From Escherichia phage SUT_E520: a stretch of 64,000 nt of DNA. The number at the start of each line of letters is the position of its first letter. Position 1 is the first letter of the stretch. The notes under the pieces were generated by a model. That model worked only from the letters and a program-made list of their open reading frames with translations. It ran no database searches and was not told where the DNA came from. The position numbers were made by a program, and so were the translations under genes. Shown piece after piece: positions 2,746-24,649 of this stretch. The stretch lies in the sequence record OQ990040; one strand, given 5' to 3'.

Positions 2746-2820
2746 TATTTGTTTTCCTTTTTGTTTATCAATTTATGAAGTATATTATACGAGAATTTGA
2801 AGCGTTTAGCAAATGAATTT

Positions 2821-3551: not shown

Positions 3552-3628
3552 AAAGCCCTCCTCACTTTCAATACGAATATTATACTAAATTATAGGGCTT
3601 TAAGCAAGAGAATTTTTTAATTTATTTA

Positions 3629-4117: not shown

Positions 4118-4386
4118 CTAATTTTAAGACCCATGTCTACAAAGGCGGCTTCTCGGTAGTATTGAGAGAGATGATACCCCTTATCCGATAAGGTTTTTAG
4201 TACCGATTTAGCGGCTCCTGGCATTTCTCTAGGATTATATAGCCACCTAGCGTAAGGATTATCTCGAATAATTACTTCTGTATTTCCAGACTTAGCAGCT
4301 TCTACAATCTTTTCTTCTATAAACTTTAGAAAAGCGGGTACTTCTGTTAATCCTGCAAGTTCTTGGGCTTCTTTGGCTGAAATCAT
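4105..4386 (-). CDS. hypothetical protein (93 aa)
   Basis: ORF track; overlapping start/stop with neighbours. Confidence 0.4.
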   Translation of the reverse strand: MISAKEAQELAGLTEVPAFLKFIEEKIVEAAKSGNTEVIIRDNPYARWLYNPREMPGAAKSVLKTLSDKGYHLSQYYREAAFVDMGLKISWEV

Positions 4387-4680: not shown

Positions 4681-5535
4681 TTACACAGTGAATGGATATG
4701 CAATAGCAGGATGGTGTTCGTAACCACGAACAGTAAAATCATCCTTATTTACCCAGGTCAATACATCCTCCAGAGTTCGGATATTTGGATTGATTTCTAG
4801 AGTAGGAGGTGCAAAGGGTTCACGATCAAATTGCTTATGCTCCATCAAAACATTATACTGATCCTCATAGATATGAAGATTGATAATCTTCTGGCGTGCA
4901 ATCCCTGGTTTAAGGCCTGTAATCTGTGCCATTAATGCTAGAAGCGTATAGCACTGAACCATGTTAAATACTTGGCCTAACAGGAAGTCATTAGATCTCT
5001 GGAAAGAGTTCAGATATAATGTATCTCCCAAAATAGAGAACTGATGAGTATGCATACATGGACGTAAGCAACCCTTTGAGAACTCCCCCGGATTCCAGAA
5101 GGTTAGAATTTCCCCACGATCATCAATGCCCTTTTTCAGATTATGATAAATCTTGGCTAGTTGGTCAAACATAAGACCATCGGAATTAGTCCACTGACGT
5201 CCTTGAACACCATAGACTCGTCCCATATCATCCTCACCTTTACGGTATGGATTGTCTAGCCAAGCTAAGTTTTCATTTGCATTAGCATTCCATGTGTTAA
5301 CACCAATAGCGCGGAATTGTGCTGCTGAATCATACCCACGTAGATACCCAATCATTTCCATTATTGCTTGTTTTGCAAACGCCTTACGAGTAGTAATAAG
5401 TGGGAATTCACCTGCACCTACGTTAAAAGTAAAATCTGCATCAATAATGGTGAGGCAACGAACCCCTGTTCTGGGATTCGTTACCCACTGACCTTCTGAT
5501 AGAATACGTTTTCCAACTTCTATATACTGATCCAT
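4681..5535 (-). CDS. thyA: thymidylate synthase
   Basis: 284-aa product with ThyA-like sequence; followed by DHFR, the classic thy-frd pairing. Confidence 0.85.
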
Positions 5536-6068
5536 TAATAAGTAACCAATTCCTGTACAAATCGCAGGCTGTTATCACTGTTTGCGCCAGTTGCGTAAAC
5601 TAAACGAGTAGATTCATAGTTGTAATCTAGAATCGTATTATCCAGATATACATCTGCCTCTAGTTTTTGATTACTAAAGATTGTGGATACAAAAGCACTT
5701 TCAATATGACCATATTGATACATTTCTAGAAGAAGGTTAGCACCACCTAGAACTACTGTCTGCTGATCTTTCAGAAATGTAGGTAAAGCATCCCCAATCT
5801 TAGAAATTGGGGTGTAAATATCATGTGTAATATCATCTGGCAGTGGACGATCAGCACGAATAAATAGGTCAGAAGCTCCAATCATACGTTCTCTAACGGC
5901 GTATGGAAGAGCTAAATAAGTACCCGCACCAATGATGATGTTATCTGGATTCAACACGTCCAGTTGAGAATAGAAAGCATCTAGTTCTTCTTTGAAGGAA
6001 CCCCATGGAAGTTTACCGCGGAGGCCGAACTCCCCATTCGGCCCAACTGCATACATTGCTGTAATCAT
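5535..6068 (-). CDS. frd: dihydrofolate reductase
   Basis: N-terminal ...[14 protein letters not shown]... resembles the DHFR fold motif; sits between thyA and nrdB. Confidence 0.75.
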
Positions 6069-7210
6069 AAGAAATCTCCAAATTCATTACCCAGATCTTT
6101 CAGAGTATCAGTAGAGGTCTCAGTTACCTGACCTACACGGTAGGCTGCACCAATCTGGATTTCTTGTGGAGCAGGCTGTAGAGAAGTAGTATCCAACCAG
6201 TTCATAATCCACGGAATAGGGTTTTTGGTGATTACTGGTAAATGACTAGGCCATTCTACACCGATGTGCATAAATGCATTACGTCCCACAAAATACAGAT
6301 ATTCTTCTAGAAGTTCTGCATTCAAGCCAATCAGACTACGACCTTTGAAAATGAAATGACCCCATTCAATTTCAGTTTTCAGAGTTTTCAGGAGCTGTGC
6401 TGGTGCTTTAGCCACTGCTTCATCTACCAGATCTTTGTCAAATTGCTGAAACATAATCTGGATGATTGCTTTGGACATCTGAGTGTGCAGAGCTTCATCT
6501 TTAGCGATTAATTGCAGATTTTTAGCAATACCTTGCAGAATATCGTTCTCTGCTAATGCAAAGGTACATGCAAAGGATGCGTAAAACTGCATTGCTTCCA
6601 GACCATAGATCGCAAAGTAAGCGTCTAATAGTTTAGCCTGAGTTTCACGTTTAACTTCAGGGAACTCAGTTTCTGGATATGTATTGTCGCCACGATGATC
6701 GCGTACTGCGATGAAATACTGACCTAACTGGTACAGTTCATCGAATAGTTCAACAGAATCAGCGATGCGCGCGAATGCTTCTTGGTTTTTGGTTACAGAA
6801 TCAATAAATTCTGCTGGATCAGTCAGCACATTACGAATAATATTGCTATAAGCACGACTATGCAGGTCTTCAAAATAGCTCCACTGTTTGAGCATACCTT
6901 CCAATTCTGGACGACTTACAAGCGGCATAATAGCTGCTTCAGGGGCACGACTAATAAAGGAATCAGTTTGAGTTTGCCATGCTAAGTTCAGGAGTGTAAT
7001 TTCCTGAATTTCTCGTGGGAGATTAGGCCATTGTTTCTTATCTGCTTCCAGACTGATTTCAGTTTCAGTCCAAAATTGAGAGCGCTGCAGAAGTGCCAGA
7101 CGTTCTAGTTCTGGATGTGCTACACGTACATAATCTGCGATACCGAGAGAATCTCCCAGGAAAAGGTCGGCGTTAGTATGATCCCAATTCAGGTTTAGTA
7201 AAGTAGTCAT
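6065..7210 (-). CDS. nrdB: ribonucleotide reductase class Ia beta subunit
   Basis: 381 aa; ferritin-like di-iron protein with NrdB-like C-terminus; adjacent to nrdA. Confidence 0.85.
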   Translation of the reverse strand: MTTLLNLNWDHTNADLFLGDSLGIADYVRVAHPELERLALLQRSQFWTETEISLEADKKQWPNLPREIQEITLLNLAWQTQTDSFISRAPEAAIMPLVSRPELEGMLKQWSYFEDLHSRAYSNIIRNVLTDPAEFIDSVTKNQEAFARIADSVELFDELYQLGQYFIAVRDHRGDNTYPETEFPEVKRETQAKLLDAYFAIYGLEAMQFYASFACTFALAENDILQGIAKNLQLIAKDEALHTQMSKAIIQIMFQQFDKDLVDEAVAKAPAQLLKTLKTEIEWGHFIFKGRSLIGLNAELLEEYLYFVGRNAFMHIGVEWPSHLPVITKNPIPWIMNWLDTTSLQPAPQEIQIGAAYRVGQVTETSTDTLKDLGNEFGDFL

Positions 7211-7276
7211 TGATTTTCCTCTTTCTCACTATTTCAGGAATATTATAGCAAATCTGGTAGCGATTAGCAAGTAAAA

Positions 7277-7759
7277 TTATAAACTATCAAGCTCCAATAG
7301 TTTAGCATCGCGCCATTCTATAGCATCCTCTAATTCTTTGAATGTTTTAGTATGTTTTACACCTTTTCTAGCAATCTGGACTTGGTAAGATCCGCTTGCT
7401 TTTTGGTGTATATTCTTAATACCTAACTTATTGTCTTTGTGCGCTCCGACATTCTTTCCATTGTTAAATCTATCAGATGCTAATAAATTAATTGCTCTAT
7501 TATCATGACGTATTCTGTTGTCATGGTCTACTTCTTTTGGAATGTATCCATGAGTGATATAGAATGCTAGGATATGTGCATAGTATTTTTTACCCCTTAC
7601 TTGCATTACTATATACCCTGAGCATTTTTCTAGAGAACCTGCTTCTTTGCCAGCAAACTTAGTATTAAAGGATTTATCTTCTCTAGGTTTGTGGGTAAAG
7701 ATTCCAGTTTCTGGATTATAGTCAAATAACCCAGCTATTTCTTTATATTTTTCTTCCAT
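7277..7759 (-). CDS. free-standing HNH homing endonuclease (HNH_3 with AP2-like C-terminal DNA-binding region)
   Basis: GY...AH.....THGYIP....VDHDNRIRHDNRAINL motif; inserted between nrdA and nrdB. Confidence 0.75.
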   Translation of the reverse strand: MEEKYKEIAGLFDYNPETGIFTHKPREDKSFNTKFAGKEAGSLEKCSGYIVMQVRGKKYYAHILAFYITHGYIPKEVDHDNRIRHDNRAINLLASDRFNNGKNVGAHKDNKLGIKNIHQKASGSYQVQIARKGVKHTKTFKELEDAIEWRDAKLLELDSL

Positions 7760-7814
7760 AATCTAAAATTACAGCTATGATAGGCCTAATAAAGGGGCTT
7801 TCGCCCCTTATTTA

Positions 7815-10148
7815 TTATAATTGACAACCACCGGATGCACATCCAGCAGCAGCTTCTTCACCTGCACCTCCACCATTTGCAGTATTGAAGTTTGCATAGT
7901 AGAAAGTTTTCCACCCATACTTAACAGCAGTCATGAAATCACGAACTACTACTGGGCCAGGAATGATTTCATTCTCAAACTTGGTGTAGTCATAGTACAT
8001 ATTCGTACTGATAGACTGACTGAAGAATTTCTGCATAGTTGCTACCCACTTGATCCACTCGATACGATCTACATCATAAGCCAGTTTATAGCTCATTAAC
8101 GTTTCCCAATCGGTTGCACCTGGAGCAATTGCAATTACTTTATTTACTGCACTACCCTTGATAGATACAATCTTACGAGGTGGTTCGATAGAGTTAGTAA
8201 CACCTAACAGAACAGAAGAACTTTCTCCCGGCATCTGAGCAGTCAGAACAGAGTTACGCATACCATATTTCAGAATATCTGCACGCAGAGACTCCCAATC
8301 CATTTCTAGACCTACGGATACCAGTTCATCAACAGTTTTCTTGTACGTGTCGATTACCAGAATTCCTTTAGATGGTTTAGTACGATCAAACCACTCACAT
8401 GCACCCTGTTCTTTAGCTAGGCGTACAGAGGCTTTATGCAGGAAGTAAGACAGTTTTTCAGCCTCACGGTGAATCCAGTTACGAGCTTCAATACCTTCAT
8501 AAGCCAGACCTTCTGCTGCCATTGCACCTGCTGCGTTCATCAGGCCAATACCAACATTACGACGTTTCTTAGCCGTATATTCCATAGTTGGGAACGGATA
8601 ATCCTGAATTTCAATAATTGTATCAACGAATTTCAGAAGGATGTAGCAAGTTTTTTCCCACTCAGCCAGAGATTCCATGCGTCCAAGTACAACACCGCCT
8701 AAGTTACACAGAGATACTTCACCAATATCCTCCGGCTTCATTTGATCAAGTTGTTCTTTTGTTTTATACAGTTCCGTGATATGATGGAACGGGCGTGTAG
8801 GCTGAGTAATTTCAACACAAAGGTTTGTCATACGGATCGGATCAAGGAAGTTACCGTGACGATTAGATTCCCCGATGTGATGAGCATACATACGTCCTGT
8901 TTCCATTCGGATACGTAGCCAAGTATCTAGGATTTCTTTTGCAGAGACTTTAGGAGCTGCTGGAACTGTTTTTCCTTCGTGGTCGATCTTTGTAAGAGAT
9001 GCCACACGTTTCTCCGCTGCCACGTAGATTTCTTCAAATTTAGCCTCGTCATCACTATAAAACGCTTCATGAACTTCTGGAGCATAGAAGTATGACATTA
9101 GCGTAATATCTTCGTTTTTAAGATAACGTTTTAACAAAAGATTGTTAAAGCTCAGAGAATAGTCCATCTTATCGATTTTATTCTCATCTGTAGCACGTTG
9201 TTGCTTAACCTGCATCAATTGAATGATTTCAGGGTCGAAGTACGTATAAGACACTGTGGCAGAACCACCACGAGTTTGCTGAGTATTGGCCTTTACTGAG
9301 CGGTCAATGTGTCGATAATATGGCAGTTTTCCGGAATGCGGGAATGCCCCATTTCGCACCGGATCAGCAATTGATCGGCTTTCAAGATGATACCCGATTC
9401 CCGCTCTGGCTGCGACCATTTTGAAGACGATGTGCTCGGCGGTGTCGATTGAATCCAACGTGTCAGTGGAATCCACGAGGCAGCAACTAGCAAATCCACG
9501 GTCACTAGAGCGCAGACCAACCAGTGGCGGCGTAGGAATGTTGATTTTGTGGAGTGACATTGCGTTGTAGAGGTCGATTGCATCTAGAATTGTCCAGTTA
9601 GGTTGAGATAACATCGCCATTGCCATACCCATGTAGGCAAACTGCGGAGTTTCATAGATTTCACCAGTGGCTATGTTACGACGGGAATACTTATCAAAGA
9701 ACTGTTTCAGCCCACCACTAGTAAAAAGACGGTCACGATCATGGTCGATAACCTGATTCAGAGCTTCAAATTGCTCATCGGTAATCCATGCACTCATGTC
9801 TTCCCATGCACCTACGCTAACCATATGGTCATGGAAGAAGCGCAGAGAAGGTGGTTCGAAGGAATCATAGAGGCGTTTACGCATTTGCGCAAGACGTAAT
9901 TCCTTTGCTGGCACATCATATGCTGGATTATCTTTGATAAGACTTTCAGCAGCTTTAATTAATGCATCCATCAGAGTGTCGGAATCTACAACCCCTTTAG
10001 GCAGAGTTTTTTGAGCAGCCATAGTAATGGCTGACCAACTTACATCAACTGTTTTGCAACCATACTCCGCCCAACCATTGAGTTTTTCAGGAGCAAAGTC
10101 TTCTACAGTACCGTCACGTTTAATTACTTTTTCAATGCGATGGCTCAT
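7815..10148 (-). CDS. nrdA: ribonucleotide reductase class Ia alpha subunit with N-terminal ATP-cone
   Basis: Long RNR-alpha-like protein. The track ORF extends to 10253, but the ATG at 10148 (MSHRIEKVIKRDG, ATP-cone start) has a good AAGGAAA RBS and is the likely start. Confidence 0.85.
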   Translation of the reverse strand: MSHRIEKVIKRDGTVEDFAPEKLNGWAEYGCKTVDVSWSAITMAAQKTLPKGVVDSDTLMDALIKAAESLIKDNPAYDVPAKELRLAQMRKRLYDSFEPPSLRFFHDHMVSVGAWEDMSAWITDEQFEALNQVIDHDRDRLFTSGGLKQFFDKYSRRNIATGEIYETPQFAYMGMAMAMLSQPNWTILDAIDLYNAMSLHKINIPTPPLVGLRSSDRGFASCCLVDSTDTLDSIDTAEHIVFKMVAARAGIGYHLESRSIADPVRNGAFPHSGKLPYYRHIDRSVKANTQQTRGGSATVSYTYFDPEIIQLMQVKQQRATDENKIDKMDYSLSFNNLLLKRYLKNEDITLMSYFYAPEVHEAFYSDDEAKFEEIYVAAEKRVASLTKIDHEGKTVPAAPKVSAKEILDTWLRIRMETGRMYAHHIGESNRHGNFLDPIRMTNLCVEITQPTRPFHHITELYKTKEQLDQMKPEDIGEVSLCNLGGVVLGRMESLAEWEKTCYILLKFVDTIIEIQDYPFPTMEYTAKKRRNVGIGLMNAAGAMAAEGLAYEGIEARNWIHREAEKLSYFLHKASVRLAKEQGACEWFDRTKPSKGILVIDTYKKTVDELVSVGLEMDWESLRADILKYGMRNSVLTAQMPGESSSVLLGVTNSIEPPRKIVSIKGSAVNKVIAIAPGATDWETLMSYKLAYDVDRIEWIKWVATMQKFFSQSISTNMYYDYTKFENEIIPGPVVVRDFMTAVKYGWKTFYYANFNTANGGGAGEEAAAGCASGGCQL

Positions 10149-11618: not shown

Positions 11619-13493
11619 ATGAATCGCAATGAAGAACTAAAGTATAAAGAAATGCAGGCGTTAATTAGAAACTGCAAAGAGATTATCGAAGGGTCAGCAG
11701 ATGAAGAGCTGCTGTTTAATAATGCTAATAAACCCTCAGAACGTTTCCCTACACAAAGGGATATGCTTGCAGGTGAATTGAGTAAGTATCTGATTCTAGA
11801 AGAAATGCCAATTCAGATTCGAAATGCTCATATGATTGGGGATATTCATTTCCATGATGCTGATTATGCTGCATTAGGCATGACTAACTGTTGTCTGGTA
11901 GCTTTGGAAGATATGTTGAAGAATGGTATGAAGGTTGGTAATGCTGAAATTAGCACTCCAAACTCTATCACTACTGCGGCGGCTATTACTGCTCAGATTA
12001 TCACTCAGGTTAGCTCCCATCAGTATGGTGGTACTTCTGTAGACCGCCTTGATGAAGTATTAGCCCCTTATGTTCGTAAATCATATGACAAAAATCATGC
12101 GTTTGCAAAACGTTGGACTAAGGATGAAGCCAAAGCATCCGTAATGGCTACGGAGATGACTGAAAAGGAAGTCTATGACGCTTGTCAGGGTTTAGAATAT
12201 GAAATCAATACCATGTTCAACTCTAACGGTCAGAGTCCATTTATTACCTTTGGTTTTGGTCTAGGAACTTCTTGGGAAGCACGTCTAGTACAGAAAGCAA
12301 TACTGAAAGTACGCATGGATGGTTTAGGTATCAATAAACGTACAGCTATCTTCCCGAAACTGGTATTTGTACTTCGTGATGGTGTTAACATGAAACCAGG
12401 AGATGTTAATTATGACATCAAGAAGTTAGCTATGAAATGTACTGCTGAACGTATGTATCCAGATTATATCAGCTATGACAAAGTTGTAGAAGTTACTGGA
12501 GACTATAAAGTTTCTATGGGCTGTCGTTCATTCCTAGCTGCTACAGAAGATGGTGAAACTGCCGGTCGTAATAACTTAGGTGTTGTTTCTGTAAACTTGC
12601 CTAGAATTGCTATCGAAGCTGAAGGAAATATTGACCTATTTTTTGATTTGCTTGAACTGCGTGTGGATACAGCGTTAAAAGCATTGGAGTGGAGAGTTGA
12701 TCGCTTAAAATACATCCAAGCTAAAGCTGCACCCATCCTCTATATGTCAGGAGCCTTTGGGTTACGCTTGGAGCCTGATGAATATGTATTCGATCATTTC
12801 TATAATCGTGCTTCTGTATCTCTAGGGTATATTGGCTGCCATGAAATGCTACAGTTCATGTTTGGCAAAGATATAGACACAATGTCCGAGACCTGCATCA
12901 AGTTTGTTCAGCGTGTATTGCAGTACATGCGGGATAGAGTCGATCAGAAGAAGGAAGAAACTAAGTTAGGTTATAGCCTGTATGCTACACCATCAGAATC
13001 CCTATGTGATCGCTTTTGTCGTCTAGACCGTGAATATTTCCCGGAACATGAAGATATTCTGTCCAAAGGATACTACACTAACTCTCACCACCTTGATGTG
13101 GAACGTAAAGTTGCTCCTAACGTGAAATTTGATTATGAATCTAACTTTACTCCGATTGCTTCTGGTGGGTGTATTTCCTACGTAGAATTACCGGATATGA
13201 AACGATTCCCAGATGCACTGGAATGGGTTATTAATTATGCTGCTAGTAAGGTTCATTACTTCGGTATTAATACTCCAGTGGATTCTTGCGGTAAATGTGG
13301 ATTCTTAGGTGAAACAATAGCATCCGAAGATGGATTTAAGTGCCCTATCTGTGGTAATCATGACCCCGAAACTCTTGAAGTAACTCGTCGAGTTTGTGGG
13401 TATCTTGGAAATCCGGGTGCTCGTCCATTTAACCCCGGCAAACAGCACGAGGTGATGGGCAGAGTGAAACATCAGGATATTCGAGCTAAATAA
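11619..13493 (+). CDS. nrdD: anaerobic ribonucleoside-triphosphate reductase (class III)
   Basis: C-terminal glycyl-radical motif RVCGYLGNP and Cys cluster CGKCGF...CPICG. Confidence 0.85.
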   Translation: MNRNEELKYKEMQALIRNCKEIIEGSADEELLFNNANKPSERFPTQRDMLAGELSKYLILEEMPIQIRNAHMIGDIHFHDADYAALGMTNCCLVALEDMLKNGMKVGNAEISTPNSITTAAAITAQIITQVSSHQYGGTSVDRLDEVLAPYVRKSYDKNHAFAKRWTKDEAKASVMATEMTEKEVYDACQGLEYEINTMFNSNGQSPFITFGFGLGTSWEARLVQKAILKVRMDGLGINKRTAIFPKLVFVLRDGVNMKPGDVNYDIKKLAMKCTAERMYPDYISYDKVVEVTGDYKVSMGCRSFLAATEDGETAGRNNLGVVSVNLPRIAIEAEGNIDLFFDLLELRVDTALKALEWRVDRLKYIQAKAAPILYMSGAFGLRLEPDEYVFDHFYNRASVSLGYIGCHEMLQFMFGKDIDTMSETCIKFVQRVLQYMRDRVDQKKEETKLGYSLYATPSESLCDRFCRLDREYFPEHEDILSKGYYTNSHHLDVERKVAPNVKFDYESNFTPIASGGCISYVELPDMKRFPDALEWVINYAASKVHYFGINTPVDSCGKCGFLGETIASEDGFKCPICGNHDPETLEVTRRVCGYLGNPGARPFNPGKQHEVMGRVKHQDIRAK

Positions 13494-13500
13494 GCTAATC

Positions 13501-13537
13501 AGCCGGGTTGCTAGTCGACCTGGCTTTTATTTTATTT
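13501..13537 (+). terminator. rho-independent terminator after nrdD
   Basis: AGCCGGGT / ACCTGGCT stem (one G-U pair) followed by TTTTATTTTATTT. Confidence 0.55.
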
Positions 13538-13564
13538 GCTTTCAGCCAAAAATTTATATATAAT
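13536..13564 (+). promoter_or_regulatory. early promoter with conserved leader
   Basis: TTGCTT - 17 bp - TATAAT, then ATAAATTTGAGAGGAG leader and ATG at 13593. Confidence 0.55.
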
Positions 13565-13592: not shown

Positions 13593-13973
13593 ATGGAATT
13601 AAAGCCCTATATAGTTGAGTCTACATGTGGTGGTTTCCATCTTGGCGTAGACGATCTTAGAGAAGCTATTTTTGCATCTACTGGAGATTATTCCCATCTA
13701 GAGGGTATTGGATATTCATCAATTATTGGTGATTGGGTAGAAACAAATCTAGATGTATCACCATATAACTCAGATTGCTTGTTTGACGAGGATGAGGATG
13801 AAATAAAGTATGATATTGAATTTGTTTATAATAGAGTATTAAAAGTATACCAACGTAATCCCGAGGGATACGAAGATATTACTAAAGGTATTAAACAGTA
13901 TCTTAAAGATGTATACTATAATTTTTCTGATGAAGACCTAGAAACAGTTGCAGTGGAGTTTAATAATGGCTAA
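13593..13973 (+). CDS. hypothetical acidic protein (126 aa)
   Basis: ORF with strong RBS; acidic stretch DEDEDE. Confidence 0.45.
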   Translation: MELKPYIVESTCGGFHLGVDDLREAIFASTGDYSHLEGIGYSSIIGDWVETNLDVSPYNSDCLFDEDEDEIKYDIEFVYNRVLKVYQRNPEGYEDITKGIKQYLKDVYYNFSDEDLETVAVEFNNG

Positions 13974-14172
13974 GAATGTAAAACATCTTAAATATCGCTT
14001 AATTTACAATGGACGTATGGAAACAGAAGACCTGGCCCAATTAGCTATTAATTCTAACGAGGTTACAGTGCGTGCGCTGGCAATTGAAAAGTTGCGTGCC
14101 TCTTATGAAAATCGTGTTATGGAACTAGAGGAGAAACTTTATGGCATTCTCGAAGCCGATGCTACCAGATAA
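13948..14172 (+). CDS. hypothetical protein (74 aa)
   Basis: ORF track; overlapping operon spacing. Confidence 0.35.
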   Translation: MQWSLIMAKNVKHLKYRLIYNGRMETEDLAQLAINSNEVTVRALAIEKLRASYENRVMELEEKLYGILEADATR

Positions 14173-14362
14173 GGGTTTAAACGCCGCTTTGGAAAACGCA
14201 TTAATGCAGCACTGGGAAACTGGCTATAAGGATGGTGTTGAATCCTGCGCTACTATGCTAGAAGTTATTGCTAATACCTTAATGGAGAAAGGCAATAAAG
14301 AATTAGCTGAGCTATTAGACAGTATTGGGCAAAACTTCAGAGAACAGGTGAAAAATGCGTAG
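14141..14362 (+). CDS. hypothetical protein (73 aa)
   Basis: ORF track; overlapping operon spacing. Confidence 0.35.
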   Translation: MAFSKPMLPDKGLNAALENALMQHWETGYKDGVESCATMLEVIANTLMEKGNKELAELLDSIGQNFREQVKNA

Positions 14363-15170
14363 ATTAATTGTTATTAGCGGTGCAGGTTTGAGTGTTGAAA
14401 GTGGTGTACGAGCTTTTCGTACTGATACTGCTAGTGGTAAAGCATTGTGGGATGATTATGATCTAGAAGAAGTATGTAATATTCATGCCTTTCGTGGTAA
14501 TTTTTATCATAAAACCCATATGTTTTACAACAAGCGTCGTGAAGAGCTAAAAACTGTTGAACCCAATCTTGCGCATTTGCGTATCGGTGAATGGTATAAA
14601 CAATATCCAGGTCAAGTAGTAAACTTGACTACCAACGTTGATGACCTTATTGAGCGTTCTGGCGTTCCACATAATGACATTCTACACATTCATGGATATT
14701 TAAAAGAGGTTGTTGTAGCTGATAGCTACAATAGTAGCAATAAACGGATTATTGATGTAGGATACAATTCTATTGATCCAGATGATTATAAATGGGTTAA
14801 ACCTAATGTAATCTTCTTTGGAGAGCATGCTCCAGCATATGCGGAGATGTACAATGTTTTTGATGGTATTACCAGTCAAGATATGATCATTGTGGTTGGT
14901 TGCTCTAACCAAGTAATTAACTTCTACTGGGAATTATTTCCTGTTCTTAATTTGACTGCTGCCAAGCTAATGGTTGTTAACTACTATGATAGTGCCCTAG
15001 CGGCGGAACCGAGCTATCAAGGTATGACTCGTAGTGAGATGTACCAGCTGGAAGAACGCGGTATCCCTTACTGGGGTAAAGGTGCGGTAGATGCTTTCAG
15101 TGATCCTGATTTTATTGCTCGTGTAGAAGCTCATTTAGGGGGTAGACCTTATGTGTCAGGAAATAAGTAA
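14355..15170 (+). CDS. Sir2-like (sirtuin-fold) NAD-binding protein lacking the zinc ribbon
   Basis: GAGLSVESGVRAFR, NLAH...TTNVDDLIERSG, HIHGYL, PNVIFFGE and VVGCS align by eye to CobB/sirtuin motifs; no CxxC...CxxC zinc-binding cysteines. Confidence 0.7.
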   Translation: MRRLIVISGAGLSVESGVRAFRTDTASGKALWDDYDLEEVCNIHAFRGNFYHKTHMFYNKRREELKTVEPNLAHLRIGEWYKQYPGQVVNLTTNVDDLIERSGVPHNDILHIHGYLKEVVVADSYNSSNKRIIDVGYNSIDPDDYKWVKPNVIFFGEHAPAYAEMYNVFDGITSQDMIIVVGCSNQVINFYWELFPVLNLTAAKLMVVNYYDSALAAEPSYQGMTRSEMYQLEERGIPYWGKGAVDAFSDPDFIARVEAHLGGRPYVSGNK

Positions 15171-15663
15171 TACTCCAATTATTTTTCTAGACATTGATGG
15201 GGTGCTCAATTCGAGCATCTCCCACTATCATGCACCTGATGATGAAAAGATTTTCTTTGGAAGTGATTGGGTTTTCAAACCGCTTCTCAAGGCTTTTCAG
15301 GACTTTATTCGTCCTTCTCCAATAATGATTGTTGGAGTATCATCTTGGTTCTCTGTCAGAAATGAGATGGAGAACGTTCAGATTATGACCGGATTAGGCC
15401 TTATCGATCGTTTTCTTGGTACAACGGATTTTACTGGTGGTGGATTATCTAGGGGTAATTCTGTTCTTCGCTTCGTTGAAAAGCATAAGCTCAAACATTG
15501 GTGTGTGCTTGATGATGCGGGTGCTATGATGTATCAGTATCCAACGGTTATAGTCAACGGTAGGACTGGTATAAATCTTCAAGATTTAAAAGCTGTTAGC
15601 TATATGCTAGAATTTAGCCCAGATCTTGAAATGTGTAAATCCTTACAACAATTTAAGGTGTAA
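15151..15663 (+). CDS. HAD-superfamily phosphatase-like protein
   Basis: N-terminal FLDIDGVL (HAD motif I, DxDG) and a later VLDDAG acidic motif. Confidence 0.5.
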   Translation: MCQEISNTPIIFLDIDGVLNSSISHYHAPDDEKIFFGSDWVFKPLLKAFQDFIRPSPIMIVGVSSWFSVRNEMENVQIMTGLGLIDRFLGTTDFTGGGLSRGNSVLRFVEKHKLKHWCVLDDAGAMMYQYPTVIVNGRTGINLQDLKAVSYMLEFSPDLEMCKSLQQFKV

Positions 15664-15665
15664 AT

Positions 15666-16094
15666 ATGTTCAATAATGTATTCTCTAAAGAAGCTAACCC
15701 AATTTTGGTTAACTTTTGGCGTACTCTTCCAGCTAGCCTGTATAATGAGGCTATTAACTCTTTGAAAATATGGTGTGAGAATAACGAAATCTACTTTGCT
15801 TTTAAAGATGATATTGATGAAGCCCCCTGTATTGGTTTAATTGTTCAGGTAGAGGAGGGTCTTGAAGAGATTGTCGGCTGGAAAGAGTTAGATGAAATGG
15901 GCTTAGTTTTTGCGTTAAACTATAAGCTGTTTATGCCTGCTAAGCATCGCCTCGTTGTTAACTATAAAACTAGTGAATCTCCTGGTTTTCAAGTTAATGA
16001 ACGTTACGGTTGGTCTTACTCACCAGAAGAAGTGAATGATGGTATCCAAAAACTTCGCCGTTTCGGGTATATGATCCCAGGTTTAACTGCTTAA
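15666..16094 (+). CDS. hypothetical protein, paralog 1 of a tandem pair
   Basis: Shares DEAPCIGLIV, ELDEMGLVFALNYKLFMP and C-terminal RFGYMIPGL with the next ORF. Confidence 0.5.
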   Translation: MFNNVFSKEANPILVNFWRTLPASLYNEAINSLKIWCENNEIYFAFKDDIDEAPCIGLIVQVEEGLEEIVGWKELDEMGLVFALNYKLFMPAKHRLVVNYKTSESPGFQVNERYGWSYSPEEVNDGIQKLRRFGYMIPGLTA

Positions 16095-16103
16095 GGAGGC
16101 AGA

Positions 16104-16493
16104 ATGGAACAAGTATATTGGCGTCAGATTGACCCTAGTTTGGTGAAACGTGCGGAGAAGCTGCTACAACGTTGGTTGGGGGTAAGACAAGCCTCCTTCA
16201 CTTTTCCTGAGCAGCAAATAGATGATCCATGCATTGGCGTTTTCCTGTCTGGATACGCCAGGGAATGGGAACTGGATTGGAATGAGTTGTCTGCTATGGG
16301 TTTAATTGTTGCCCTAAATTTCTCTTTGTTCCATCCACGTGGTTTTGCCATATGTCGTGTGCCGGATGATGGTTGTTCGCCCCATCTTTTACAGGTGGAA
16401 AATGATATTTGGGAGTACACTCCAGATATTCTCAAAGAAGCTAAAGAACAATTAAACCGTGTTGGGATATATGTTCCGGGATTAAATGACTAA
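16104..16493 (+). CDS. hypothetical protein, paralog 2 of a tandem pair
   Basis: DDPCIGVFLSG, ELSAMGLIVALNFSLFHP and C-terminal RVGIYVPGL; GGAGG RBS. Confidence 0.5.
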   Translation: MEQVYWRQIDPSLVKRAEKLLQRWLGVRQASFTFPEQQIDDPCIGVFLSGYAREWELDWNELSAMGLIVALNFSLFHPRGFAICRVPDDGCSPHLLQVENDIWEYTPDILKEAKEQLNRVGIYVPGLND

Positions 16494-16519
16494 TGATTTT
16501 TATTAGCTGAACTCTGATT

Positions 16520-16545
16520 ACCGAGTCATTTTGGCTCGGTTTTAT
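16520..16545 (+). terminator. rho-independent terminator after the paralog pair
   Basis: ACCGAG - 9-nt loop - CTCGGT followed by TTTTAT. Confidence 0.55.
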
Positions 16546-16587
16546 CCGTACTCAAGACCAATGATAGCACCATCCGGAAAATTTTAC

Positions 16588-16616
16588 TTGCAGGATGCTC
16601 AAAATCTTGATATAAT
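16588..16616 (+). promoter_or_regulatory. promoter firing into the 16,620-17,115 non-coding region
   Basis: TTGCAG - 17 bp - TATAAT followed by a leader (ATTTATATTGAATTGAGAGAT) resembling the conserved early leader. Confidence 0.5.
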
Positions 16617-16679
16617 ATTTATATTGAATTGAGAGATATTAGTAAAAATTGATTTTGCTAATTTTTCTTGTTTACAATC

Positions 16680-17010
16680 CGCGATACGGAACAGTTAGGC
16701 TGCCCAATTAAGGGTTGTTTTAACTGTTACGTGTTAGTTTTTAAACAAATAGTTAATAGAATACTTAGCGATCTGCGTCCCGTAGGAACCCTGGTAAGGC
16801 CTCGAAGCAACCTAGATAGAGGTGGTTGTGAAGTGAGACGGGAGGAGTGAAAAACTCCGAGACGTGATTCTGTAAGTTATATTGCATCTAGTATGAGCTA
16901 GTACATGAAGCATTAGGTGAGCAAATCTGGCTTAGCGGCCATCCTCAAGGATTTGTGCGGTATAGCAAAGCAGCAGCGCAGCGTGAAAGTGGAAGTTGCC
17001 ACCCCACTTC
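16680..17010 (+). ncRNA. candidate structured non-coding RNA or long 5' leader / origin-proximal element
   Basis: GC-richer block with several local hairpins (e.g. GGAGTGAAAAACTCC), no credible ORF (only a TTG-start 60-aa ORF without RBS), no tRNA T-loop. Confidence 0.3.
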
Positions 17011-17115
17011 AGTATTTGCGATTAATTTGTTGAGAAATTGACAGTAACAGTTGTTCTATTCTTTCTGAATAGTCCTAAAGAAAACTTATTTCATTTCCAA
17101 CACAGGAGTATTGTT

Positions 17116-19905
17116 GTGTTCTCAATCCTACAAGGTCATGCAGGATTTCATCGCGATTTAGCCACAGGCAATTGGCGAGAAGTTAAAGCAGAAGACTATC
17201 TTTTTGCTAAAAGATTTTCCTCAAAGCATCCTGAAGGTAAACCAGCTTCAATGCCCTTCAAGTTTGATGTAATTGATGAAGTTGATCCTCAAACCCTAGT
17301 AGAAATGCTTCCTCTTATGAGACGTTTAACGTCTGACCCTCATATCGTTGCGGTACGAGGTCGATGTCTTACACCTAAAAATAATGTGCGACGTAAGAAG
17401 GGCAACTTTAATGTATCTAACCCAAGTCATATAATTGCAATGGACGTGGATGGTATTGTAGATACAGGTGGTTGCAACAAGTTTGATCTTGTTGGCATGG
17501 CTCGACATATTATTAGAATGTTAAATAGTATTAGTGAGGATATGTTTCCTCTTGATGCAGGGTTTATCGCTCATGCATCGTCTTCGGCTGGGCTAAAACC
17601 AGGTATCCGAATGCACTTAATACTAGAATCTAATGTTAAAGTAACTCAGGGTCAAATCAAATTCTTATTTACATCTATCAACGAAAGTAGTAGACAAAAG
17701 TATGGCTTTGATATTGCCGACTTAGCTTATTACTCTTCCGTACAGCTCCACTATTTTGCAGATCCGTTATTTACCGATGGTATAGTAGATCCGTTTAAAG
17801 CGGAGGGTGCTTCACGTCTGGTATTTGTTAAGGGTTCTAAAGTAAATTTACCCAATAATCTGGTTGACTATGAAACAACTAGAGGTGAGTTTAAGGAGGA
17901 GTTTTACTCTTTACTCGATCAAATTAAAGGTAAAAAAGCTGCCTCTGATAAAGTAGAGGAAACTATCAGCGAACTAGAAGAAGCTGAGGATGGAGTGTAT
18001 CTACGTATCATACCTAAACTCTATCACAGAGCCTTAGAGGATGGTGTTGATTTTGCATGGCTAGAAAAAGAAATCCGTCCAGCCTTATCAGAATATATTG
18101 CAACTAAAGATAACAGTCGCAATATTCAAGATTACTTTAATAACGGTCGTAAACAGGCTCTGAAAGCATTTGTTAATAATTCTAAACGTGATATACCTGA
18201 TGTTTTAAAGGGTATTCCACTTAAAAAGCTAGAAACTAATTCTCTAGAAACTGATAACTTCTTGAAATTAAATACTGTACCACCAGAAGGTTATATGACT
18301 TTTGTAAAAGCAAGTCTAGGTACAGGTAAAACTACAGCGGTTGTGCGTTGGTTAGATTCAGGAGTTATTAAAGGTAATTTCTTAGCAATTACCAATACTA
18401 GAGCACTGGTATCTTCAAATGCCAAGAAATTTAGTGCAGGACAATATGATAAGTCTGTAGATATGCTTAATTTTAAGCGGGGTGCTATTGACCGTATGTC
18501 CACAACTATTCACTCTTTGCATAAATTCAAGAGTTTTATTGGTCAAATTGATGCAATCTTTATCGATGAATGTGATGCAGTAATGAATGACCTATTATTC
18601 GCCCCGGTTGTTAAACAACGTCGCGAGTGTATTCAGGTTCTTCGGGATATTCTTGCAACTGCAAAAATCATTATATTATCTGATGGGGATATTAGTGCAG
18701 AAACAATTGAAGCATATGGTTCTTTGATTGAGTTTGATAAACCAGTAGCATTTTATAACCATCACCGTAAAATGCTATCAAAAGCTCATGCTTATGAGTT
18801 CCCGGATGAATCCAGTATTTGGGTTGCACTTCAGACTTCTCTAGAGATGGGTGAGAAATCTATCCTAGTATCTGACTGTGGGCCGGATGAACTGAATGAG
18901 AAGGGTATGGCATTGCGTCGTAATACGGGTGCGTTAGTTAAGGAAATCCACTCAAATTCTACATCCGATGTAGATATTCGACGTATTCTGGATTACACAA
19001 CTAATGAGCTAATTGATCAACAAATTGATTGCTTATTATGTAGTCCATCCGTAACAAGTGGTGTTGACTTCAACTATTTTGATAACGTATTCGTTATTAC
19101 TAGAACCAGCAACCAAGCGCCAAACATGCGTTTCCAAGCAATCAGGCGCGACCGTGGCGCTCAGAACATTTATTATTTTATTGATAAATCTACGAGTGGA
19201 TTCTCCGCAGGTTCTGAGCAATATAACATTGACGAAGGTTGGCTGGAGTTAGCACAACAATTATACGCACGTCGTAGAGAGCTGGAATCTAGGAATTATA
19301 CTAGTACTTTACGTTATTACTTGCTTGATCAGGGTGCAACTATTGATATTTTCAGTGAAAGCTGGGGAACTATCGAAGGTGCTGGGAAGGAATATACGGA
19401 AGAGCGAATCAAAGCTATTTTATATTCAACTCCTGATTATTGTGCTCCACGTCATGCTGATGCGTATGAAGCTAAACTACTTCTTGTTCGCTACTATCAT
19501 CTTGAGTCTATTAAAGATGTAACAGTTGAGCATGTTGAACAATATATCAAGGATAAACCTAATGATCGAGCGGCATTCTTCCATAAAATGCACGAGATGT
19601 TCTGGGAAGATATTAAGAAGTGTTCAAATGTCACTATCAAACCATTCATAGAAGCTCTGAAAGGTAAGAAGAAAGATTTCTTCCTTAAAACAGGTCAGAG
19701 TGCTAACCCAAAATATGCCAGAATGTATCTTGGTATGATGGGTATTGGTAAGGATATGAACACTGAAAATATTGTAGACTGGTACAGAACCTATTGTAAA
19801 ATCGAGTGTATGCCAATCCCCTATAAGTTTATGACTGATGAGGAGAAACATATGCATGATGAAGCAATGGCAGAGCTAGGTGCTAGAAATGACAGTGAAG
19901 AATAA
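17116..19905 (+). CDS. putative replication initiation protein: N-terminal primase-polymerase (AEP-like) domain fused to C-terminal SF2-type helicase/origin-binding domain
   Basis: N-terminal IIAMDVDG (hhhDhD-like) and KPGIRMHLIL (sGxGxH-like); C-terminal Walker A GTGKTT, Walker B IFIDECD, helicase-like SPSVTSGVDF and QAIRRDRG. Start moved to GTG 17116 (AGGAG RBS 7 nt upstream); the track ORF from 17038 has an implausible N-terminus. Confidence 0.6.
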   Translation: MFSILQGHAGFHRDLATGNWREVKAEDYLFAKRFSSKHPEGKPASMPFKFDVIDEVDPQTLVEMLPLMRRLTSDPHIVAVRGRCLTPKNNVRRKKGNFNVSNPSHIIAMDVDGIVDTGGCNKFDLVGMARHIIRMLNSISEDMFPLDAGFIAHASSSAGLKPGIRMHLILESNVKVTQGQIKFLFTSINESSRQKYGFDIADLAYYSSVQLHYFADPLFTDGIVDPFKAEGASRLVFVKGSKVNLPNNLVDYETTRGEFKEEFYSLLDQIKGKKAASDKVEETISELEEAEDGVYLRIIPKLYHRALEDGVDFAWLEKEIRPALSEYIATKDNSRNIQDYFNNGRKQALKAFVNNSKRDIPDVLKGIPLKKLETNSLETDNFLKLNTVPPEGYMTFVKASLGTGKTTAVVRWLDSGVIKGNFLAITNTRALVSSNAKKFSAGQYDKSVDMLNFKRGAIDRMSTTIHSLHKFKSFIGQIDAIFIDECDAVMNDLLFAPVVKQRRECIQVLRDILATAKIIILSDGDISAETIEAYGSLIEFDKPVAFYNHHRKMLSKAHAYEFPDESSIWVALQTSLEMGEKSILVSDCGPDELNEKGMALRRNTGALVKEIHSNSTSDVDIRRILDYTTNELIDQQIDCLLCSPSVTSGVDFNYFDNVFVITRTSNQAPNMRFQAIRRDRGAQNIYYFIDKSTSGFSAGSEQYNIDEGWLELAQQLYARRRELESRNYTSTLRYYLLDQGATIDIFSESWGTIEGAGKEYTEERIKAILYSTPDYCAPRHADAYEAKLLLVRYYHLESIKDVTVEHVEQYIKDKPNDRAAFFHKMHEMFWEDIKKCSNVTIKPFIEALKGKKKDFFLKTGQSANPKYARMYLGMMGIGKDMNTENIVDWYRTYCKIECMPIPYKFMTDEEKHMHDEAMAELGARNDSEE

Positions 19906-22704: not shown

Positions 22705-23676
22705 ATGACCAATGTAAAAGACTTTATTAAACGTTGCCAAGAAGCATATTATCAAGGTATGTCTTTAATCTCTGATGAAGAGTATGATTGCCTGGTAAAA
22801 CGCTTTCCGTTAGAAGAAGAGATCGGACCTAAGGGCGATATTCCACATCTGTATCGTATGTATTCTTTACAGAAAGTTTATTATAATCGTGGAGATAAAC
22901 CTCCGTTTAACCCGTTAGGTCAAGTAGAAACTGATAAGTTAGATGGTTGTGCAATTTCTCTGTTATATATTAATGGCGAATTTGTTCAAGCACTAACTCG
23001 TGGTAATGGTATTCTAGGGAATGATGTCACAAGCAACGTAAGATTGCTGAATATCCCTAAAAAGATTTCCCAAAAAGTACCTACTCAAATCACTGGTGAA
23101 GTTCTAATTACAAAAGAAGTAGAAAATAAACGTAACTTTGCCTCTGGTGCTATTAACCTCAAAGATAGTGATGATTTTGTACAACGTATCGGAGAAGGTG
23201 GTTTAATCTTCGTTGCATATGGTATCCAGTGTTCTGCTGAATCTGTAGGTATTACAGAAGCATATTTAAAAGATATGCTTTGGCTGGAGAATGAGAACTT
23301 CTTAACAGTTGTTAATGTGCGTTCCTTCTTTAAATGGATTCCGACGGATGGTAAAGTTGTTCGTATTAATGACAACAACAAATTCTTCCGTGAAGGCTGG
23401 ACTAATAAATTCCCTCGTGGAGCATTCGCTATTAAAGAGGATGAAGAAGGCGAGGTTACAACTCTTACTAAAGTTGAATGGCAGGTAGGGGCTTCTGGTA
23501 AAGTAACTCCAGTTGGTTATTTCGAACCGGTAATTATTGATGATGCTACAATTGTTAAAGCGACTCTTAATAACGTTGATTATATTAACTCTCTTGATCT
23601 AGAGATCGGTTGCCAGATTCGAGTGATTCGTGCTGGTGGTGTAATCCCGTGCATAGTAGAGCGAGTATACGAGTAA
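22705..23676 (+). CDS. NAD-dependent DNA ligase, N-terminal half (adenylation and OB domains)
   Basis: Adenylation motif ETDKLDGCAIS (KxDG) and downstream LigA-like nucleotidyltransferase/OB sequence; ends before the Zn-finger/HhH/BRCT part. Confidence 0.75.
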   Translation: MTNVKDFIKRCQEAYYQGMSLISDEEYDCLVKRFPLEEEIGPKGDIPHLYRMYSLQKVYYNRGDKPPFNPLGQVETDKLDGCAISLLYINGEFVQALTRGNGILGNDVTSNVRLLNIPKKISQKVPTQITGEVLITKEVENKRNFASGAINLKDSDDFVQRIGEGGLIFVAYGIQCSAESVGITEAYLKDMLWLENENFLTVVNVRSFFKWIPTDGKVVRINDNNKFFREGWTNKFPRGAFAIKEDEEGEVTTLTKVEWQVGASGKVTPVGYFEPVIIDDATIVKATLNNVDYINSLDLEIGCQIRVIRAGGVIPCIVERVYE

Positions 23677-23726
23677 TACATAACCCTTTGCTACCCATCT
23701 ACCATATCGGAATTATAAAGTGGTTA

Positions 23727-23755
23727 TTGACATTTTCGCCGCTTAGGTATATACT
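23727..23755 (+). promoter_or_regulatory. sigma70-type promoter inside the ligase inter-ORF spacer
   Basis: TTGACA - 17 bp - TATACT. Confidence 0.55.
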
Positions 23756-23819
23756 AGTATCATTCAGTTGAGGGATAGAAAGTTATGGCGAGGGTAAGCA
23801 AAGTTAGTTAAAATTGTAG

Positions 23820-23848
23820 TTGCTAAATGCTTAAATACTTGCTATAAT
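23820..23848 (+). promoter_or_regulatory. early promoter with conserved leader
   Basis: TTGCTA - 17 bp - TATAAT, then TTTATATAAATTGATAAGGAAG leader. Confidence 0.55.
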
Positions 23849-23878
23849 ATTTATATAAATTGATAAGGAAGAAATTTG

Positions 23879-24649
23879 ATGAAAATCGAAATTCCAACAC
23901 AATGTCCCTCTTGTGGTTCTAAGCTAGATCTTGTCAACGGACAATTATTTTGTCGGAATAAGTCCAACTGTCCAGCGCAATCAAGTAAGTTAATTGAGAA
24001 CTTCTGTACAAAAATGAAGTTAAAGGGTTTTGGTCCAAAAACTATTGAGAAGCTGGAGCTGACGAAGATTTCAGAACTATTTTACCTAACCGAAGAAGAT
24101 TTGGTTAGAGCCGTGGGTAGCAAGGTTGCCGCTAAGTTAATTAGCGAATTAAATACTAAAGTTCGCGGAGACATTGACTTTGGTTCAGTTCTCGGTTCTT
24201 TAGGAATCCCTCTAATTGGAGAGGTTGCAGCAAAGAAATTATCCCAAAATTGCACTAGCTTCCACGATGTGAAGGCTGACGGCAAGGCTGGAGAAAATTA
24301 TAAAGCCTGGCTAAATTCCCCACAAGGCAAGGATGTTATCGAATTACCGTGGAAATTCTCAACTGGTGCTAAAGCTAAAACCGTCGTTACTGATGATTTA
24401 GTTGCCCAGCCAAATGGAATCGCGGTATGTATTACCGGATCTTTGCAAGACTTTGCAAATCGAACGGATGCAACAAACTATTTAGAAGGTCTAGGATATA
24501 CGGTTAAGAAATCTGTTACCAAAGACGTCAAATACCTAATCTGTGAGGATGAATCGAAGCGTTCTTCCTCATCTTATAAGAAAGCCGAAACGAATGGGAT
24601 AGAAATCCTGTCGATTAAAGAACTATTGGAGAAAAATAATAATGTCTAA
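23879..24649 (+). CDS. NAD-dependent DNA ligase, C-terminal half (Zn-finger, HhH, BRCT)
   Basis: Cys4 motif CPSCGS...CRNKSNCPAQ, HhH-like GIPLIGEVAAKKL, BRCT-like AVCITGSL...YLICED; ATG at 23879 preferred over TTG at 23876. Confidence 0.7.
   Translation: MKIEIPTQCPSCGSKLDLVNGQLFCRNKSNCPAQSSKLIENFCTKMKLKGFGPKTIEKLELTKISELFYLTEEDLVRAVGSKVAAKLISELNTKVRGDIDFGSVLGSLGIPLIGEVAAKKLSQNCTSFHDVKADGKAGENYKAWLNSPQGKDVIELPWKFSTGAKAKTVVTDDLVAQPNGIAVCITGSLQDFANRTDATNYLEGLGYTVKKSVTKDVKYLICEDESKRSSSSYKKAETNGIEILSIKELLEKNNNV

Follow-up and report, generated by a model that had tools for sequence, protein, structure and literature searches.

A zinc-less sirtuin, a capless HAD phosphatase and paired DUF7415 proteins in the early operon of a T5-like Escherichia phage: conserved, separable genes with a predicted role in NAD+-dependent phosphate processing

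Introduction

Phage sirtuins were surveyed in silico by Iyer, Burroughs, Anantharaman and Aravind (2022; Viruses 14:1977, PMC9503650), who in section 3.7.3 assign most viral sirtuins to a distinct clade and predict that they act like KptA/Tpt1, stripping 2'-phosphates from RNA with NAD+. Three conserved neighbourhoods are listed in that section: (i) jumbo phages, e.g., Serratia phage BF, with 2H, Nudix, cREC and PIN genes, (ii) rV5 and Mydo, with a T4-like tRNA ligase, cREC, a kinase, MazG and a calcineurin-like phosphoesterase, and (iii) Sir2 with a “Swiss-army-knife” HAD, typified by the T5-like Escherichia phage SP15. An earlier paper (PMC5107563), in which T5 is listed as well, had already pointed to zinc-less sirtuins in phages KVP40 and phiSt2. 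This study concerns a 64,000-nucleotide stretch of Escherichia phage SUT_E520 (sequence record OQ990040; hereafter “the window”), in which genes for a sirtuin, a HAD phosphatase and two small DUF7415 proteins follow one another on the + strand.

A sequence-only reading of the window had described these four open reading frames (ORFs) as an accessory cluster and had proposed a role in manipulating NAD or ADP-ribose (ADPR) or in counter-defence. All four ORFs were found exactly at the coordinates and with the motifs that it gave, and they are real, conserved genes rather than chance ORFs. The cluster is not new, as annotation for it exists in the reference record of T5 (AY543070), which names T5.102 a “putative Sir2-like protein” and also contains T5.100, T5.101, T5.105, T5.106 and T5.107, and as the Sir2-HAD neighbourhood and a mechanism for it were published in the 2022 section cited above. 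The feature is therefore real but, through public annotation and that in silico prediction, already known; the context of DUF7415 and the adjacency of HAD to NARP1-like genes are what is added here. Our best guess for its function is the published one, NAD+-dependent processing of RNA or ADPR phosphates, to which we assign a probability of roughly 0.35.

Results

Identity and distribution of the locus

A 3.6-kb stretch containing the cluster shares 100% identity with its counterparts in Escherichia phages SUT_E1520 and SUT_E420 and is matched by 529 phage records, among them many Tequintavirus genomes at 93 to 97% identity. Comparison with syntenic T5-like genomes, which the sequence-only reading had recommended, equates the cluster with T5.102, T5.105 and T5.106/T5.107 of AY543070 and places it in the 3' portion of an early operon, T5.100-T5.107, of a Tequintavirus. 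In T5, Sir2 and HAD are separated by two additional small ORFs (T5.103 and T5.104). SP15 is T5-like and 93.7% identical to the window over this region, and the cluster is therefore the third neighbourhood of PMC9503650 as section 3.7.3 defines it, with no difference from the SP15 configuration described there for Sir2 and HAD. The passages of that survey that were consulted mention neither the DUF7415 paralogs nor the T5.100-like gene, and neither the absence of HAD from Sugarlandvirus nor the natural Sir2-HAD deletions.

The term “accessory cluster” fits poorly for a block present in about 500 T5-like records; “conserved but dispensable” is the better description, given the deletions in phages DT57C and SelmaRatti. 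Records labelled “Listeria phage LM 4-...” and “Campylobacter phage C13/A148” (OR848287, OR847503, MG065692 and MG065642) also carry T5-like genes, with ∼94 to 98% identity for Sir2 and HAD, and are probably contaminant or mislabelled entries.

A divergent sirtuin without a zinc module

Profile searching placed the 271-amino-acid protein in Pfam SIR2 (PF02146) at 86 bits against a cut-off of 24, over profile positions 1 to 178 of 180, with its catalytic set intact; it is a genuine sirtuin, as had been proposed. Its closest solved structure is Escherichia coli CobB (1s5p, E=4e-17), and Sir2Af1/Af2, SIRT5 and Sir2Tm are also among the best solved relatives. G9-A10-G11-x-S13, F21-R22, N94, D96, H113-G114 and F155-G-E157 are all kept in the alignment to CobB, and the H-x-HG context of the catalytic histidine is present as HIHG. 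FY58-N-K-R61-R62 aligns to FY92-N-A-R95-R of CobB, and Y58, R61 and R62 are invariant across 25 homologues (down to 54% identity) that we aligned to represent the clade. In class III sirtuins of the CobB/SIRT5 type, the Y-x-x-R pair (Y102/R105 of SIRT5) binds the carboxylate of succinyl-lysine. The clade as a whole keeps GAGxS, FR, FYxxRR, NxTTNVD, H113-G114, KPxVxFFxE, GxS and N209 invariant and adds the clade-specific invariant residues W32, C41, F46 and Y51. The NAD+-binding and catalytic residues, including the anion-binding Y-x-x-R-R, are intact as judged from this alignment.

The phage protein thus shares with CobB and SIRT5 the GAGxS, FR, Y-x-x-R anion site, N-x-D, histidine of HG, FGE and GxS, but, apart from its clade-specific residues, it differs from them in three respects. 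First, it has no zinc cysteines: C41 and C183 are its only cysteines, A122 and a stretch of Asp, Tyr and Lys stand where CobB has its zinc cysteines, and none of the 25 clade members has a conserved cysteine at those positions, so that the absence of a CxxC...CxxC module noticed in one protein extends to the clade. Second, TQNxD is replaced by an invariant TTNVD, in which N94 and D96 are kept and Gln has become an invariant Thr in the 25 homologues. Third, its scores against the NCBIfam CobB/deacylase models are far under the cut-offs (99 versus 243, 89 versus 320 and 77 versus 318 bits). By these sequence criteria, the protein is classed as a divergent, phage-specific offshoot of CobB/SIRT5-type sirtuins and not as a CobB orthologue.

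The sequence-only reading had likened the protein to the NADases of bacterial immunity (ThsA, DSR and SIR2-pAgo), with which it shares little. Common ground with ThsA, DSR1/DSR2, SIR2-HerA and SPARSA is limited to the SIR2 superfamily and the use of NAD+: those systems are SIR2_2-type and host encoded, while the phage gene is of the CobB/SIRT5 type (PF02146) with Y-x-x-R. No PADLOC SIR2 model matched it at an E value of ≤0.1, the sole match being noise to a type I restriction endonuclease, and Pfam SIR2_2 gave no match at an E value of ≤1. The protein has a single domain, and its neighbours are HAD, DUF7415 and small ORFs, with no SLOG, HerA, pAgo or TIR partner that could serve as a sensor. 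A defence-type identity was rejected on these negative PADLOC and SIR2_2 searches, and on sequence grounds the sirtuin is not considered a relative of ThsA, DSR or SIR2-HerA.

tblastn detected the sirtuin in 991 phage records, including T5-like phages, Vequintavirinae (rV5 and Mydo), Phapecoctavirus/Justusliebigvirus, Vibrio schizoT4-like phages and jumbo phages. Identity is 52 to 63% to the sirtuins of rV5, Mydo and Phapecoctavirus and 41% to that of Serratia phage BF, with a match to the hidden Markov model (HMM) of the clade.

A capless HAD phosphatase

The second gene encodes a capless HAD phosphatase of 170 amino acids with all four motifs intact, in agreement with what had been read from its DIDGVL motif. 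It matches HAD_SAK_2 (PF18143; E=9e-20, 71.9 bits against a cut-off of 27.5), and an alignment of 24 homologues shows FLDIDGVLN (motif I), GVSSWF (motif II), R101 (motif III) and D121 (motif IV) to be invariant and D122 nearly so; D14/D16, S64/S65, R101 and D121 are all among the invariant positions. No relative in the PDB was found by sequence, with either the single sequence or a profile of the 24. An AlphaFold model (predicted local distance difference test score [pLDDT] of 95.1) has a Rossmannoid HAD fold without a cap, and a fold search returned capless HADs as its nearest structural relatives, several of which (SCP1, Fcp1, UBLCP1 and CTDNEP1) act on proteins. Fold, four motifs and lack of a cap are shared with the capless (C0) HADs MDP-1, SCP1/Fcp1 and UBLCP1 and with polyvalent “Swiss army knife” proteins; the role at RNA ends that the family name HAD_SAK_2 implies is itself a prediction. 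The HAD occurs in 490 phage records, comprising Escherichia/Salmonella T5-like phages, Aeromonas/Morganella/Proteus T4-like phages and some Vequintavirinae.

In DT57C and SelmaRatti, a natural deletion has joined part of Sir2 in frame to the C terminus of HAD, and both enzymes are therefore dispensable in the laboratory. The remnant ORF of this deletion is the source of phrog_18062, named “Sir2 (NAD-dependent deacetylase),” which joins Sir2 residues ∼169 to 216 to HAD residues ∼130 to 170 (positions 3354 to 3626 of the DT57C locus stretch). As the intact HAD matches phrog_18062 at 6e-58, PHROG-based annotation appears to label it a second “Sir2,” giving “Sir2 x2” in many records.

The DUF7415 paralogs

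Both small proteins belong to DUF7415 (PF24187), with scores of 125 and 110 bits (cut-off, 27). They are ∼30% identical (tblastn E ∼1e-16), and their description as paralogs is upheld. Both contain PCIG and G(Y/I)xxPGL, but PCIG, which had been singled out as a shared motif, is not a functional one, because its Cys is Ser in 5 of 11 close homologues. The two proteins are compact and alpha/beta, the model of paralog b is very confident (pLDDT 95.7, predicted template modelling score 0.88), and no relative was found in the PDB. Across the wider family, W6, G66 and S92 are the only invariant residues, which argues against enzymatic activity. Pfam gives two stretches per protein and the model has two beta-alpha-beta-beta units, as would follow from an internal duplication; against this, hhalign of the N-terminal half with the C-terminal half gave a probability of 4.5%, and the HMM of the stand-alone domain matches the C-terminal half alone.

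An exhaustive profile search yielded 159 relatives, most of which share only a ∼55-amino-acid core, which stands by itself or is joined to a dATP/dGTP pyrophosphohydrolase (PF04447) or a thymidylate-kinase-like domain. Two-unit proteins were found in 523 records, all of them Demerecviridae. The stand-alone form, in 80 IMG/VR contigs, is mostly a gene of 60 to 80 amino acids located between gpL (head completion) and holin/muramidase genes in P2-like phages, and in none of these 80 contigs is there a HAD or Sir2 gene within 6 kb of it. The idea of DUF7415 as a nucleotide-metabolism domain, raised by the PF04447 and thymidylate kinase fusions, is weakened by this gpL-lysis context of most stand-alone copies and by the lack of detectable homology between the fused pyrophosphohydrolase and the rV5 enzyme. 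No paper on DUF7415 was found in the literature. Some records name these proteins “tail tube protein,” “tail protein” or “RNA-binding protein”; no support was found for those names, and the copies next to gpL may be the source of the “tail” labels.

Gene neighbourhoods in other phages

The four genes had been presented as one module, but Sir2, HAD and DUF7415 occur separately in other lineages; they are not an obligate module and are best called conserved but separable. At the rV5, Mydo, Phapecoctavirus, phi92-like, Vibrio phage and jumbo phage loci examined, the sirtuin has neither HAD nor DUF7415 within ∼5 kb. Sugarlandvirus Spivey (positions 2485 to 4246 of its locus stretch) has Sir2 and both DUF7415 paralogs without a HAD gene. 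DUF7415 thus appears to have been duplicated in tandem before Sugarlandvirus and the T5-like genera diverged, and within Demerecviridae the DUF7415 pair appears to be more tightly linked to Sir2 than HAD is. A divergent T5-like metagenomic contig has the order HAD, T5.100 homologue and Sir2, so that proximity is kept though the order differs.

Genes for processing cyclic phosphates adjoin the sirtuin in two unrelated lineages, those of rV5 and Serratia phage BF. A re-check of rV5 gave an RnlA-like RNA ligase, cREC (PF20274, 9e-14), Sir2 and an NTP pyrophosphohydrolase, together with a divergent P-loop kinase and a phosphoesterase. The order in Serratia phage BF is an NMNAT-like gene, a hypothetical gene, NAMPT, a small ORF, a 2H/Acb1-like gene, a small ORF and Sir2, directly followed 3' by a Nudix-cREC fusion and then by a membrane-protein gene and PhoH. 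RNA-repair genes lie near the sirtuin at a third locus, that of the rV5 relative Proteus phage Mydo, where a phosphoesterase, an RNA ligase and three small ORFs precede Sir2.

HAD_SAK_2 has neighbourhoods of its own. In Aeromonas phage Aeh1, it (Aeh1p322) shares 2.6 kb with nrdA.1, denA, rnlA and a stand-alone DUF7415 gene of 77 amino acids (Aeh1p318); Aeh1 is a second, unrelated lineage in which HAD is near DUF7415, there beside RNA ligase 1. A pair of Prs-like and NAMPT-like genes with the domain make-up of NARP1 is headed by HAD_SAK_2 in Serratia phage ChuuTotoro and in a JGI contig related to it (Table 1). The surroundings of HAD in the T4-like phages Aes012 and MP1 gave no functional clue.

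Operon layout and other features of the window

The cluster is the 3' part of a seven-gene operon on the + strand (13593 to 16493) with terminators at both ends; the three further small ORFs of this transcription unit (13593 to 14362) had been omitted from the sequence-only reading. The ORF map confirms the operon spacing of the four genes, with a 20-nucleotide overlap between the 3' end of the Sir2 ORF and the start of the HAD ORF, and their position on the + strand between nrdD (11619 to 13493) and the origin-binding helicase gene (∼17100 to 19905). T5 and Lindwurm records annotate a terminator at the same place after nrdD, and T5, Lindwurm and Spivey annotate one at the position homologous to the downstream hairpin. 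The promoter falls under the −35 threshold of our promoter scan and was identified by reading the sequence itself; T5 has an annotated promoter at the homologous place (55708 to 55782).

Table 1. Features of the operon and related stretches in other phages
Feature	Position	Strand	Remarks
Rho-independent terminator of nrdD, upstream boundary of the operon	13501-13534	+	10-pair stem-loop (13501-13525), then TTTTATTTTAT
Sigma-70-like early promoter	13536-13564	+	TTGCTT-17 nt-TATAAT, then ribosome-binding site GAGGAG; read directly from the sequence
T5.100 homologue, 126 amino acids	13593-13973	+	phrog_11748
Small ORF, T5.101-like	13948-14172	+	phrog_5236; start annotated in Lindwurm ∼13966
Small ORF, 73 amino acids	14141-14362	+	phrog_5827
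Sir2 (sirtuin), T5.102 orthologue, 271 amino acids	14355-15170	+	Pfam SIR2, E=4e-24; phrog_2162, 5e-119
Capless HAD phosphatase, HAD_SAK_2 family, T5.105 orthologue, 170 amino acids	15151-15663	+
DUF7415 paralog a, T5.106 orthologue, 142 amino acids	15666-16094	+	PF24187, 1e-36; phrog_2502
DUF7415 paralog b, T5.107 orthologue, 129 amino acids	16104-16493	+
Terminator hairpin, downstream boundary of the operon	16520-16545	+	ACCGAG...CTCGGT, then TTTTAT; from the sequence
Aeh1 HAD-rnlA-DUF7415 stretch	15958-18519		Locus-stretch numbering
ChuuTotoro HAD-NARP1-like stretch	4980-8196		Locus-stretch numbering
Related JGI contig, HAD-NARP1-like stretch	6001-9569		Locus-stretch numbering

About 550 bp of non-coding DNA (16546 to 17100) separate the operon terminator from the helicase gene, and T5 has an annotated promoter near the start of the homologous stretch. 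The helicase gene starts with TTG at 17038 in the mechanical ORF list and ∼80 nucleotides later in related records. An HNH homing-endonuclease ORF (7277 to 7759, − strand) lies between putative nrdB and nrdA, which were assigned by size and T5 synteny; HNH insertions occur at variable places in related phages, including the Sir2 operon region of MM-1, BB1 and SP15. The ORF at 942 to 1643 (− strand) contains a 3'-5' exoribonuclease Rv2179c-like domain (5e-8), and its T5 counterpart appears to be annotated “putative metallopeptidase.” Two adjacent genes (22705 to 24649) together encode a split NAD+-dependent DNA ligase, one for the adenylation and OB domains and one for HhH and BRCT, and the phage therefore needs NAD+ for replication.

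Discussion

Under the favoured model, the sirtuin would use NAD+ to put ADP-ribose on a phosphate and would not act on acyl-lysine. The target would typically be a 2'-phosphate on RNA, e.g., tRNA, left by metal-independent nuclease cleavage, and the reaction, like that of Tpt1/KptA, would release nicotinamide and ADP-ribose-1'',2''-cyclic phosphate. HAD might then either trim the terminal phosphate of the broken RNA or dephosphorylate the ADPR-phosphate by-product. The cREC, 2H, Nudix, RnlA and kinase genes beside the same sirtuin clade in other lineages would encode enzymes for such jobs; in T5-like phages HAD would be the sole partner, and ligation would need the host. The DUF7415 pair would probably contribute binding or adaptor proteins. 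We favour this model because genes for cyclic-phosphate processing flank the sirtuin clade in two unrelated lineages. In addition, the clade-wide loss of the zinc module, which forms part of the peptide cleft, and the Gln-to-Thr change suggest a non-canonical substrate, the catalytic chemistry and the anion-binding Y-x-x-R-R having been kept.

The likeness to Tpt1/KptA proposed in section 3.7.3 of PMC9503650 lies in the consumption of NAD+, the transfer of ADP-ribose to a phosphate oxygen and the location beside enzymes that process (cyclic) phosphates. Tpt1/KptA differs in having an ADP-ribosyltransferase fold, in contrast to the Rossmann fold of the sirtuin, and the analogy is drawn from gene context alone. 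Compared with the RNA-repair systems as outlined in that section, the locus has a sirtuin of the distinct clade and an adjoining phosphate enzyme (HAD_SAK_2), and no RNA ligase was detected in the window or the searched parts of T5.

Several observations weigh against RNA or ADPR-phosphate processing. First, every acyl-lysine deacylase hallmark is kept in the sirtuin, including FGE and Y-x-x-R, and we know of no sirtuin that acts on RNA; no experimental study of any of the four proteins, of the names T5.102 to T5.107 or of phage sirtuins was found in the literature. Second, tblastn with the Mydo ligase and a PF09414-type ligase found no Rnl1-type or PF09414-type homologue in the window or in T5 at 1 to 50 kb and 53.5 to 63 kb (E≤1), and with no homologue in T5-like genomes the pathway is incomplete without host enzymes. 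Third, the link between the two enzymes is loose. HAD is dispensable within Demerecviridae, Klebsiella Sugarlandvirus (Spivey) having nrdD, Sir2 and two DUF7415 genes but no HAD, and among 60 non-T5 viral contigs with a HAD relative (IMG/VR), none has Sir2 within 8 kb and ∼8 have an RNA ligase near HAD, a share that for large phages does not clearly exceed chance. Finally, early regions of virulent phages are long co-directional arrays, in which adjacency is weaker evidence than in bacterial operons.

Almost as likely as the RNA/ADPR-phosphate model, and equally tentative, is that the sirtuin is an ordinary CobB-like protein deacylase that removes acetyl, succinyl or further acyl groups from host or phage lysines early in infection, and so would re-activate or re-programme enzymes of metabolism, transcription or replication, with HAD and DUF7415 as unrelated neighbours. 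Its best relatives (CobB, Sir2Af1/Af2, SIRT5 and Sir2Tm) and the name of every NCBIfam match, “NAD-dependent protein deacylase,” speak for this, as do the invariance throughout the clade of each residue needed for deacylation, including the class III Y58-x-x-R61, and the separability of the genes; the same proposal has been made for the zinc-less Vibrio phage sirtuins (PMC5107563). On the other hand, the zinc module, which is normally needed for structure and for the peptide cleft, has been lost throughout the clade, the Gln of TQNxD has been replaced and the CobB models score far under their cut-offs (e.g., the 99 versus 243 bits given above). Deacylation would also leave unexplained the recurrent direct adjacency of cREC, 2H, Nudix and RnlA in other lineages.

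A bolder version of phosphate processing, which we consider rather improbable, would make the protein the first sirtuin with a phosphorylated nucleic-acid end or an ADP-ribose derivative as its substrate, acting as a Tpt1/KptA-like 2'-phosphotransferase or as an ADP-ribose “capper.” HAD_SAK_2 would then hydrolyse ADPR-1''-phosphate or cyclic phosphate as a counterpart, non-homologous, of the macro-domain phosphatase Adpp, and DUF7415 would supply RNA- or nucleotide-binding adaptors, being found near rnlA in Aeh1 and fused to dNTP pyrophosphohydrolase and nucleotide kinase elsewhere. Such a role would explain HAD both beside the T5-like sirtuin and beside the NARP1-like pair of ChuuTotoro, in which HAD_SAK_2 may be the stand-in for Adpp.

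The NAD- or ADPR-centred role proposed in the sequence-only reading is plausible in itself, while no evidence was found for its counter-defence part. Made specific, that idea would have HAD dephosphorylate an ADPR-phosphate, e.g., the ADPR-1''-phosphate formed by RES-type NAD+ phosphorylases or the cyclic phosphate formed from ADPR-PP, and would have the sirtuin interconvert ADPR derivatives and NAD+ by nicotinamide exchange or destroy ADPR-based immune signals, sparing the NAD+ supply of the phage. We regard this as doubtful. NARP1 operons do recruit Adpp, an ADPR-1''-P phosphatase, against aRES defence (10.64898/2026.01.28.702374), and NARP1-AP (Adps, Adpp and Namat) resembles the ChuuTotoro and JGI arrangement, where HAD_SAK_2 likewise joins a phosphatase gene to NAD+-handling genes. 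The sirtuin of Serratia phage BF lies near NAMPT, NMNAT-like, Acb1/2H-like and Nudix genes, T5-like phages depend on NAD+ (the window encodes the split NAD+-dependent DNA ligase), and some relatives encode NARP3 (PMC13464706). However, Adpp is a macro domain and not a HAD, neither the window nor T5 has a Prs/NAMPT (Adps/Namat) pair, and just 4 of the 60 other viral loci with HAD have Prs- or NAMPT-like genes nearby, which is not clearly above chance. A sirtuin consumes NAD+, contrary to sparing it, the protein phosphatases among the nearest structural relatives of HAD point away from a small-molecule substrate, and the literature reports no anti-defence phenotype for these genes.

Hydrolysis of NAD+ in the manner of ThsA, DSR or SIR2-HerA, which would serve to exclude superinfecting phages or to shut off the host, is very improbable, as the shared SIR2 superfamily fold and catalytic His and Asn are outweighed by the negative PADLOC and SIR2_2 searches, the lack of a SLOG, HerA or pAgo partner, the NAD+ dependence of the phage's own DNA ligase and the location of the gene in an early operon that a lytic phage expresses constitutively.

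The zinc-less sirtuin is present in 991 phage records of the collection searched, with the model phage T5 and many candidates for therapy among them, and either of the two leading explanations would give it wider importance. If the published prediction is true, sirtuin chemistry would extend from protein lysines to RNA phosphates, and these phages would possess a pathway that repairs tRNA damaged by host nucleases. If the protein simply deacylates other proteins, it would clearly exemplify how a lytic phage can rewrite the acylation of host proteins.

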